From IMG/VR virus record IMGVR_UViG_2537561506_000014: a stretch of DNA of 4,444 nt; one strand, written 5' to 3'. Of the stretch, positions 1 through 3,000 are shown in pieces. This DNA is from a virus. Lineage: Duplodnaviria > Heunggongvirae > Uroviricota > Caudoviricetes. Position numbers: made by a program. Position 1 is the first letter of the stretch. Every line of letters starts with the position of its first letter.

Positions 1-3000
1 TTTGAAAAATATAATTTTATTTCATCCTCCTGGTCACTTTGGGGCACGTCTGGGGCACGGGCATTAAGGACATTATTCAACATGGCAACCTGAGTCACGC
101 TGCACTCAGGCATCCATGCACCATAAACATTGTAGACCATGCTGGCGCTGGAGTGCCCCATCTGTGATGCAATAAATGTCGGGTTTGCTCCGGCAGATAA
201 AGCCCAGCACGCATAGGTATGGCGTGACTGATACGCTTTACGGGATCGGATACCCGCTCTTTTTATTGCTGAATCCCATGTCGCTCCGATGGAGCTTACC
301 GCGTAGTTAATACCCGCCTTGTGATTCTTGCGAACGATTTGCGGACAGAAAACAAAAGTGCACTCGTGCAAAATTGTTCTTCCGTACTCGCGTAATTGAA
401 CAGTGATCTGATGCTGCCTGCTAAGACGAGTAAGCATCGCCTGGTTTTTAAGTGCTTCAATTGCTGGTGCCAGAAGATGTATAACCCGGTTAGTGCCTGC
501 GTCGGTCTTTGGTAGCGTAAAATCACCTATTTTTGTAAAATTTCGTCGCACTGTTATCGTGCCAGCTTTCAGGTCGATATCCTCCCATGCAAGTGCGGCA
601 ATTTCACCGTGTCGCATCCCTGTAAAAACAGCCACTGTCCAGAGGTTTTTGGTCTGTTGATGATGGCAGGCATCAATGAGACGGCTAAACTCATCTCTGG
701 TCAGTGGATCCGGCACTGGTTTTGATTTCCTCAGCGGTGTTATTGAATTAAAGGGGTTTTTCTCCAGATACCCGTTTTCGGCGGCAAAGCTGAACATTCC
801 GGCTGTTGTTGTCATGTAATAGTTCACTGTGGGTACGGTTCTTCCTTTTCGGGACGTGCTGGTTTTCCTGCTTCCCTTTTCCCCGGTCAGTAAATCTTTC
901 CTGATAAACAGCAGATCTTCTTTTGTAATCGATGACGCCAGCCTGCCAGGACCAAGCCTCGGTAGCATATTTTTCATCACTGATTGATAACGATTTAAGG
1001 CGTTACTACTGATTTCCATTACTTTCAGAGTAAGCCATTTCTGTGCCAGTTCACCGACGGTGATATCTTTTTTTACCAGGCCAAATAGCTTCAGGTTAGG
1101 TGAGTCAGGGAATCGATCGGCATAATCAAACGTTCCTGTTCTGATTGCAAAGCAGACCGAAGCCCTTAACTCACCAGCGATCTTTCTGTTTTTCGGTGTA
1201 TCGGGCACGCGAAGATTTTCGCGCACTCGTTTACCCCTGTACTTAAACGTTATTCGGAGTTTTCCTCCGTGATTTTCAACGCCGGCTGGATAGGCTGAAT
1301 TCGCCATTGTTCCTCCTGCGTCCAAGAGCACGCTCAGGTTATACTCTTATGGACAAGAATTAAACATCCTGAGATGGTAAGGGTTGGTTTTTGATCCAAG
1401 TGTTGATGGTAGGAAGATGATAGAGACATTCGCTGTTTTTCTTTGGCGTTCCGTCGGGGGCGATTTGTTTATATTCTCTGCCGTTCATCCACGCACTGTC
1501 CCTGGCGCGTAATATTGTTCCTTTTCTCAGGCCTGTTACAGCCATTAAAAGCTCCAGTGTTACCCATTCATTCGCATTTATCTGTACAACAGGTGTGATG
1601 ACTGGCTGAATGCCATGGTTATGTTGGTTTACTAACTCGCGCATAAGTTGCCTCTGCATGTGTAAGAAAAAACCGCCCGAAGGCGGTTGTCAGTTGATTG
1701 ATGTACGGCGCATTTTTCGAAGGCTGGCAATATGCTTTTCCTTCTCAATTTCCGCTTTAATCATATGCAGTTCGTTGTGCTCGATTCGCTCAAATTCTTC
1801 ATTAAATGCACCAATTGAAGTGGCTCTGGTTCTGCCGTCGAGCCTTCGGTAGATCACCTGAGTCAGAGTTACCTTGCATATTTCTACCGGATAGTTGTTG
1901 GCATCAACGAAAGACTGCCCGCGCTGGATCAGGACGAACACTGGTTGTATTCCTTGAGTGCCATATCATAAACACGGCATGCCGAGAGGTGTGTTGTAGT
2001 CAACGTCGTTCGTATCCTGAAAAGTCCATGTGTTGTGACGGTAACTTCCGGGGCTTTGAGTTTCACTGCATCAACGATATGCTGATGTTTGCGGCTTTCG
2101 AATATAGAGCTGGAGATAACCACACTTGCTGTTAAACCGTAACTTTCAAATGTGATTTTCATGTCATTATCCTCGCAGTTAGCCGGGCAACAAAAATAAA
2201 TAATGTTGTTCCTGCGAATAACAGGATACCGCCCGTCATTAGAGAAAGGAAAAACAATATTAATGTACGCGGGTTGTTTCTCAAAATATTCTCTCTGTGA
2301 TTCGCTCACTCTGACAATTCGTTGATCAAGTCACGGTATTTATTCAGTTCTTGCAGCGCCTTACATGCACCCTCCCATCGTTTCTGTTTCCGCCCGGCGC
2401 GACGCGCTTCTTTCCGTGATTTACGTAGCAGGTCACCTATAATGTTGTGCTGCACTGGCTGCACTGGCTGCACTGGCTGCACTGGCTGCACTGAGGCGAT
2501 ATTTGGTTTTTTGTCCACTTCCCTTGCAACTGCCTGCCAGATGTCATTTTTTACAGTTACTACCCCCTGGTTTTTTAACTTCCATAGAGTGTCAATAACG
2601 TCATTCAAATCAATATTGAGACCTTTAGAAATACTTTCGGCTGATGCTTTTCCTAATTTGTTCAATTCTGTGAGCACTGCGTTCATTTTTTTCTCCTGAT
2701 ATTTTAATGTCGGTGGGGCTGTTATACGGTTGGTGAGGTGTCAGCTTCTTCTACCAGCTTTTCCAGTTCATCCAGCTTGCGGGAAAGAATTTCACCAAAC
2801 AGATGAAGTTCTGCATCTGCTGTAATCGGGATTGGAACAAATCGTATTCCACTTCTGGCAAGTTGCAGGTTAGCCACGGTTAACCTCCTGCGGCGGTTCC
2901 GGTAGCGGCATCCAGTGTGTGGCCTGTTCAATACCATTACCATCAATACCATTACCAGGCGCAACCGTTATCTGCCCACGCCGAAAGGTGCTTCCTGTAT

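Follow-up and report, generated by a model that had tools for sequence, protein, structure and literature searches.

The locus considered here raises the question of whether a short hydrophobic open reading frame (ORF), lying between two annotated genes of a Shiga toxin (Stx) prophage, is a gene or an accident of base composition. The DNA analysed (the window, 4,444 nt of the IMG/VR virus record IMGVR_UViG_2537561506_000014) comes from an Stx-type lambdoid prophage integrated at wrbA, of which it covers the int-proximal end of the early leftward (exo-xis) region. In Stx phages this region influences the lysis–lysogeny decision, and it is being studied one gene at a time. Here, a spacer of 143 nt separates a DUF1627 gene from the gene of a 77-residue protein of the phrog_1001 family (the 77-aa gene). 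This stretch is non-coding in RefSeq and bears three mutually incompatible annotations in phage records. The original prediction placed in it a 26-codon mini-ORF that might encode a small membrane peptide coupled to the 77-aa gene or serve as a regulatory upstream ORF, unless it had arisen by chance. Our analysis indicates that the mini-ORF is most likely not a chance ORF. It is probably a copy, diverged and unannotated, of a gene for a conserved membrane peptide of 41 residues that many enterobacterial prophages carry immediately upstream of relatives of the 77-aa gene.

The elements of the mini-ORF are present as described. On the minus strand, ATG 2239–2237 opens the 26-codon hydrophobic frame (MTGGILLFAGTTLFIFVARLTARIMT), the stop codon TGA 2161–2159 overlaps the ATG 2162–2160 of the 77-aa gene as ATGA, and ATG 2239 has no Shine–Dalgarno sequence (SD), its calculated free energy of pairing (dG) being +1.5 kcal/mol vs −5.4 to −11 kcal/mol for well-supported neighbours. 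The frame itself extends uninterrupted over 48 codons between the DUF1627 TGA (2306–2308) and position 2159, and offers two earlier in-frame starts: TTG 2284, 45 bases upstream of ATG 2239, which gives 41 aa, and TTG 2257, which gives 32 aa and has no SD.

The identity of this ORF is suggested by a peptide family found next to other phrog_1001 genes. One of the contexts among 80 IMG/VR loci with phrog_1001 relatives (locus L133) contains a 41-aa transmembrane ORF, the ATG of which overlaps the upstream stop and the TGA of which overlaps the downstream ATG. A tblastn search with this peptide led to an annotated 41-aa coding sequence of E. coli phage SaltyDalty (CDS0049, XNS37662.1), located two genes from xis, and a scan with both peptides yielded 41 loci with 23 distinct peptides, every one of them exactly 41 aa long and every one ending in the ATGA junction. 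The next gene encodes a 73–74-aa phrog_1001 protein in 18 of the 23 and an unrelated protein (86, 118 or 136 aa) in four, while in one no ORF of at least 50 codons follows. The median pairwise ratio of non-synonymous to synonymous substitution rates (dN/dS, omega) is 0.20 for the peptide frame, at a dS of 1.13, as compared to 1.17 and 1.98 in the other two frames. An exact-sequence look-up located annotated members on hundreds of contigs from Klebsiella, Raoultella, Enterobacter, Citrobacter, Salmonella and E. coli (RefSeq examples are WP_200780903.1, WP_407301808.1 and WP_410743371.1), under the labels ‘hypothetical protein’ or ‘sodium:solute symporter’. Because of the dN/dS of 0.20 and the RefSeq presence across Enterobacteriaceae its members can be considered real genes; the unnamed 41-aa family is thus a real gene family under purifying selection, with a constant architecture. 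No model in Pfam, NCBIfam, PHROG or PADLOC covers it, and the canonical family (locus L160) gave no match by megablast against complete E. coli genomes. The ‘sodium:solute symporter’ label (NCBI, UniRef; L139–L179 and L138) is a misnomer for a 41-residue single-helix peptide that presumably spread from chance similarity between transmembrane segments.

The family peptide consists of a basic N-terminus with the conserved sequence MKK(V/I)xEL, about 27 hydrophobic residues with a small-residue face (SS..G.G..AG, that is S15/S16, G19, G21 and A24/G25) and a basic tail (ARLxAR). In the eight members examined, the ORF starts at an ATG preceded by an SD of −5.3 to −11 kcal/mol; this ATG overlaps the stop of the preceding gene in both contexts examined, and the SD of the next gene (GCGAGG, GTGAGG or TGGAGG) is located within codons 37–38 of the peptide.

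When read from TTG 2284, the window ORF has the same length as all 23 family peptides and the same single central hydrophobic helix (Kyte–Doolittle 19-residue maximum 2.13) flanked by basic residues, R2 and R6 before it and R34 and R38 after it. Its tail, GCG AGG ATA ATG ACA TGA, has the family's layout of a downstream SD in codons 37–38 followed by ATGA, the next gene belongs to phrog_1001, the usual though not obligatory partner of the family, and the early operon neighbourhood near xis/int is also shared. The two have in common the pattern LFF-SL...AG...F..ARL.AR. A hidden Markov model (HMM) of the 23 family peptides gives the window peptide 11.0 bits, a value reached by 5 of 5000 composition-matched shuffles, and residues 1–35 alone, i.e., without the tail constrained by the SD and the ATG, score 6.3 bits (reached by 64 of 5000). 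For comparison, the same model gives −3 to 4.5 bits to DUF4014 and to spurious hydrophobic ORFs that are unrelated. The best global alignment with a family member contains 18 identities in 41 positions, with a score reached by one of 1000 shuffles; in the MAFFT alignment the window peptide is 31–46% identical to family members, with one two-residue shift in the helix. The homology rests on this shuffle-based significance together with positional equivalence, not on a database-scale E-value, and on these grounds it is likely that the window ORF and the 41-aa family share descent.

The composition of the spacer also fits a chance ORF poorly. Among dinucleotide shuffles of this stretch, about 5% contain an ORF this long that ends in ATGA, but only 0.03–0.4% contain one both this long and this hydrophobic, so the hydrophobicity of the mini-ORF is not explained by composition. 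In its 81-nt core, codon position 2 contains 63% T and no A (0%), and real genes of the region almost never reach such a T level at any codon position (at least 55% T in 0.15% of windows).

Comparison with the family also changes the start of the ORF. The natural unit in the Stx-phage lineage is probably the 41-codon ORF from TTG 2284 to TGA 2159 and not the 26-codon version from ATG 2239, which is probably not the start: this codon, Met16 of the longer peptide, lies inside the hydrophobic helix, in a two-residue ‘MT’ insertion relative to the family that is specific to this lineage, and it reads ATA in one homologue. TTG 2284 looks like a mutated family ATG, since the first nine bases of the window ORF (TTGAGAAAC) resemble those of the family (ATGAAAAAG). 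It is invariant in every copy seen. The AGAGAG motif six nucleotides upstream of it has a dG of −3.6 kcal/mol, a value matched by about 40% of all window positions. Of the claim of a membrane peptide coupled to the 77-aa gene, the nature and position of the product are thus supported by homology to a single-helix family with the same ATGA junction, whereas the proposed start and length are not.

The annotations of the 143-nt stretch in public records are at variance with each other. PHANOTATE calls the 41-aa ORF in phages phi315 and phi367, the phi24B and Ss-VASD records annotate over the same DNA a long form of the 77-aa gene (126 aa or more), and an ORF on the opposite strand is called in phages P13771 and P13374. 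A plus-strand ORF of 40 aa (window 2203–2325), annotated as ORF04 in P13771 and P13803, overlaps the peptide ORF and has no support; the ORF04 label covers the same region also in phages P8983 and P14437. On the minus strand, a promoter-like TTGAGA-N16-TAATAT (9 of 12 matches; window 2257–2284) falls on the TTG at which the peptide ORF would start. Promoter-like sites in the region are not more frequent than in shuffles (3 vs 1.7), Rfam contains nothing relevant to the spacer, and its fold has a z-score of −0.92, with no RNA structure standing out that would mask an SD. A structured RNA or a promoter as the explanation of the spacer is therefore unsupported.

The variation within the Stx-phage lineage, to which the conservation analysis suggested in the original prediction was applied, is limited. 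The spacer is almost invariant: it occurs in 147 of 5426 complete E. coli genomes and in about 85 phage records, nearly always at 99% identity or more, and the sampled copies from E. coli and Stx phages, all at 95% or above, are at least 98.8% identical. Because these copies are nearly identical, intactness of the frame in them has little weight, and conservation among close relatives is by itself too weak in power. A diverged allele (L046/L047, found via a protein collection), in which the 77-aa gene is 86% identical, is more informative. It has kept the 143-nt stretch with 10 differences, and the start codon TTG 2284 as well. The mini-ORF frame in it is intact, with two synonymous and four conservative changes (P5L, G19S, I20F and A24L), one of the codons being swapped as a whole (GCA to CTG). 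In the frame of the 77-aa gene, the same differences produce six radical changes and an in-frame stop (VRE-stop) across the spacer. Most peptide changes in the Stx lineage preserve hydrophobicity. The survival of the ORF through its much deeper divergence from the 41-aa family, with length and hydrophobic phasing retained, implies that selection acted on it for most of that time.

Other observations weigh against this interpretation. All seven substitutions found within the lineage are non-synonymous in the mini-ORF frame (N4T, N4K, S14Y, M16I, T17K, T26I and L35I); M16I removes ATG 2239 and T17K falls in the helix. With the diverged allele included, the lineage total is 2 synonymous vs 11 non-synonymous codon changes (omega about 1.4 in this small sample), which rejects the family's omega of 0.2 at about p = 5 × 10−4, and two of the changes in the diverged allele, G19S and A24L, hit positions conserved in the family. 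The purifying selection evident in the family (dN/dS 0.20) is thus not observed for the peptide frame of the Stx lineage. This weighs somewhat less in that the neighbouring 77-aa gene also looks relaxed at this shallow depth, with an omega of about 0.47 and a 1-nt deletion in four loci. The mini-ORF frame uses synonymous codons in an off-frame-like manner and ranks at the 3rd percentile among true-gene windows of this prophage, and PGAP leaves the stretch empty and never calls the mini-ORF. Disruption of the frame in close homologues, proposed in the original prediction as evidence that would speak against a gene, was found in part. The phiSTEC1589-type homologue, the closest outside relative of the 77-aa gene (73% aa identity), lacks the mini-ORF and has its start 24 nt downstream of exo; one E. 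coli genome holds two distant paralogues of the 77-aa gene, each beside a DUF1627 gene, and neither has a peptide ORF; and phi191 has a +1 T frameshift in the mini-ORF, in a poor record that also contains an N and another indel. Apart from phi191, however, no copy of the mini-ORF is interrupted.

The family resemblance has its own weak points. A score of 11 bits is modest and not significant in a database-wide search, the diverged allele obtains only 2.4 bits, and no bridging sequences between the window peptide and the family were found in IMG/VR. A collection of 15 billion proteins does not contain the exact window peptide. When homologues of the 41-aa or 48-aa peptide were sought directly among 5.8 billion proteins, phages and plasmids, a single match was returned, a 49-aa metaclust protein (P0004) that is a hybrid of two frames. 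This protein begins in the frame of GTG 2309 (MSESQREYFEKQPAYINIVF) and continues in the peptide frame (LSLMTGG...), a change of frame that implies the loss of 1 nt from the T5 run near 2250–2254, either a real variant or a homopolymer sequencing error. In place of the family's ATG with a good SD overlapping the preceding stop, the window copy has TTG, a weak SD and a gap of 22 nt after the DUF1627 stop, and its N-terminus is MRNNPRT instead of MKK(V/I)xEL. Relative to the family, the Stx-phage copy thus no longer has the ATG, the strong SD, the overlap with the upstream gene or the MKKVSEL N-terminus; it is written in AT-rich rare codons, and its recent changes show no sign of purifying selection. 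The chances that this copy is still active appear to us evenly balanced.

The most serious alternative is that the ORF is a product of chance in a lineage-specific, T-rich untranslated spacer, its hydrophobicity coming from T in the middle codon position and the ATGA existing only because the second codon of the 77-aa gene starts with A. The poor start context, the codon usage, the exclusively non-synonymous substitutions within the lineage and the near identity of the sampled copies all agree with this, as does the presence of five equally hydrophobic spurious ORFs among 176 unannotated ORFs in 16 kb, all of them antisense to genes. We consider this explanation unlikely in view of the rarity of ORFs of such length and hydrophobicity among shuffles, the coincidence of the 41-codon length, the junction, the SD in the tail and the downstream gene family with those of a selected family, and a similarity to that family beyond composition (p about 0.001). 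Another way to account for the same DNA is translation of the ORF for regulatory purposes only, in which case translation and not the peptide would set the expression of the 77-aa gene via termination–reinitiation at ATGA. The retention of ATGA in 23 of 23 family variants whatever the downstream gene, and the location of the downstream SD inside the ORF, would fit well. The peptide sequence of the family is, however, under purifying selection and its length is invariant, and the 77-aa gene has its own GAGGA in a spacer with no outstanding fold and no relevant Rfam family; the regulatory upstream ORF of the original prediction is, thus, very unlikely to be the whole explanation.

Two further possibilities extend one of the flanking genes into the spacer. 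The frame of the 77-aa gene is likewise open through all 143 nt back to GTG 2309, where a GTGA overlap with the DUF1627 stop would start a protein of 126 aa (phi24B vb_24B_2c, phrog_29320), with the mini-ORF as its off-frame shadow. The long forms annotated in phi24B and Ss-VASD and a gene-like synonymous codon usage (67th percentile of true windows and 93rd of off-frame windows) speak for this protein. On the other side, phrog_1001 and all distant homologues begin at the equivalent of ATG 2162–2160 and not upstream; the phiSTEC1589 homologue has its start 24 nt downstream of exo; GTG 2309 has no SD while ATG 2162 has one; 63% T at the third position of that frame is extreme for real genes here; and among 1.8 billion representative proteins HMMER found for the 48-aa extension only its own lineage and two repeat artefacts, and thus no relative. 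The stop in the 77-aa frame of the diverged allele means that the 126-aa form is not a conserved product. On account of this stop, of the start of the family at the ATG and of an extension without homologues we rejected it as highly improbable. The vb_24B_2c annotation (window 1929–2309) and the 136-position phrog_29320 are probably N-terminally over-extended phrog_1001 proteins: their C-terminal 77 residues correspond to the real gene, but the first 49 codons read the spacer in another frame. The other extension would be a read-through tail, with a leaky TGA adding a membrane anchor to a fraction of the winged-helix DUF1627 protein. The two ORFs are indeed in the same frame with no intervening stop, which has a one-in-three chance of occurring; yet the Pfam DUF1627 profile (PF07789) ends at position 153 of 155, corresponding to residue 122 of 126 of the upstream protein and so before the mini-ORF, O157-type DUF1627 genes have a second stop two codons on followed by unrelated sequence, and the peptide family also occurs after unrelated upstream genes. 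This candidate was rejected too, and appears barely credible.

The interpretation of the ORF as a diverged member of the 41-aa family thus being the preferred one, its surroundings may be considered. Over 1.2 kb the window is 100% identical to E. coli UTAK-12, and many Stx1a/Stx2a phages, phi24B, TL-2011c and the O104:H4 phage P13374 match it at 97–99.6%. The gene order, all on the minus strand, is DUF4014, an 87-aa gene, DUF551, DUF1382, DUF1627, the 143-nt stretch, the 77-aa gene, DUF4222, a hairpin, xis and int (Table 1).

Table 1. Features of the spacer and its neighbourhood (window coordinates)
Feature	Position	Strand	Remarks
Terminator-like hairpin	1671–1688		between the DUF4222 gene and xis
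DUF4222 gene	1690–1941	minus	PF13973, 2.2e-15; last gene of the module; overlaps the 3′ end of the 77-aa gene
77-aa gene	1929–2162	minus	core of phi24B vb_24B_2c; phrog_1001, 8.9e-30, positions 1–74 of 75
Candidate 41-codon ORF with stop, TTG 2284 to TGA 2159	2159–2284	minus	predicted product MRNNPRTLILFFLSLMTGGILLFAGTTLFIFVARLTARIMT; ORF reading and family similarity
ATGA overlap	2159–2162	minus	peptide stop / 77-aa gene start
GAGGA, SD of the 77-aa gene	2170–2174	minus	in peptide codons 37–39 (GCG AGG ATA); −5.9 kcal/mol
Spacer, 143 nt	2163–2305	minus	between the DUF1627 gene and the 77-aa gene; no RefSeq annotation
Internal ATG (Met16)	2237–2239	minus	within the hydrophobic helix; no SD; ATA in locus L026
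Proposed TTG start codon	2282–2284	minus	aligns with the family ATG
Weak SD-like AGAGAG	2291–2296	minus	6 nt upstream of TTG 2284
DUF1627 gene	2306–2686	minus	phi24B Gp05 / vb_24B_3c; upstream of the mini-ORF
DUF4014 gene	4039–4182	minus	PF13198

The 77-aa protein is modelled as a beta-beta-alpha-beta-beta-alpha structure with a predicted local distance difference test (pLDDT) score of 89.9, and it has no significant match in the PDB, the best being an ACT-like domain (E = 6 × 10−3) followed by KH-like and DCoH-like folds, so that the confident model offers no clue to function. Two pattern scans of GTDB genome contigs with this protein gave no matches, and a metagenome scan returned near-identical copies only. 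On the tree of the partner proteins the presence of the peptide is scattered, with nine changes over 33 tips, so the peptide and its partner form a loose, recombining module and not an obligate unit. The partner gene is itself broken in some phages, since a 1-nt deletion in an A/C run at window 1995 (Ss-VASD, P13771 and two IMG/VR loci) frameshifts its last third; a 130-aa protein (P0005) is the long-form reading of this deletion variant.

The upstream DUF1627 protein of phi24B, Gp05, has been modelled as a winged-helix protein (PMC8614690). In the window, its gene contains a Pro-Val-Gln repeat (CAGCCAGTG units, 2463–2494), the copy number of which varies in frame among otherwise near-identical phages. 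The E. coli UTAK-12 genome (L056, L057; 3.31 Mb and 2.28 Mb) contains three different prophages in which a gene with a DUF1627 domain is followed by a phrog_1001 gene, the interval between them being 143 nt, 21 nt or a 93-aa helix-turn-helix gene. This recurrent synteny suggests an association of DUF1627 and phrog_1001 genes that does not depend on the peptide. The DUF551 gene (window 2870–3763) is intact in the window (297 aa) and is represented by two pseudogene fragments in UTAK-12, where a HigB/HigA-type toxin–antitoxin pair is annotated beside the repressor gene of the prophage (L037 10507–11447, outside the window).

Several known systems may be compared to the peptide. Lambda Kil, Rac KilR and DicB are also small, non-essential, induction-expressed genes of the early leftward operons of lambdoid phages, but they encode soluble proteins that inhibit cell division, lack a transmembrane helix and show no sequence similarity to the window peptide. 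The type I toxins (Hok/Gef, TisB, Ibs and Ldr) resemble it in their size of about 30–50 residues and in having a single hydrophobic helix; unlike it, they are controlled by antisense RNA (in Hok also by the overlapping mok frame) and are not coupled to a downstream protein partner, and no such control was seen at the window locus either as an Rfam match or as a structured RNA. The DUF4014 protein of the same operon, of about 47 aa, has a hydrophobic N-terminal segment and abuts the start of the next gene, but it is unrelated in sequence (−1.6 bits on the family HMM) and belongs to a recognised Pfam family.

The SD in the tail of the family peptide and the TGA/ATG overlap imply that the peptide and its downstream partner, both encoded in the early operon of the prophage near xis/int, would be translated as a pair in which termination of the one is coupled to initiation of the other. 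The peptide may insert in the inner membrane as a single-pass helix, the small-residue face of which would pack with itself or with a host membrane protein, and it may act together with the soluble partner during induction or infection. If the Stx-phage copy is made, ribosomes that have terminated at the DUF1627 stop would re-initiate at the TTG 22 nt further on, probably with a low yield of peptide.

The placement of the ORF in the 41-aa family indicates its probable reading frame and start, points to the over-extended annotation behind the 126-aa form and phrog_29320 as well as the propagated symporter misnomer, and defines a recurrent pair of a peptide and its partner. The interest of this pair is specialist and modest unless it shows a phenotype. 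A more ambitious proposal, which we regard as quite unlikely, is that it constitutes an undescribed two-part prophage module in which a helix oligomerising through its small-residue face tethers or regulates the phrog_1001 protein at the inner membrane, with a role in host takeover, superinfection exclusion or lysis–lysogeny control, and that the TTG copy in the phi24B- and O104:H4-type Stx phages is active. If this were true, the exo-xis region, with its established influence on prophage induction, would gain a hidden membrane component.

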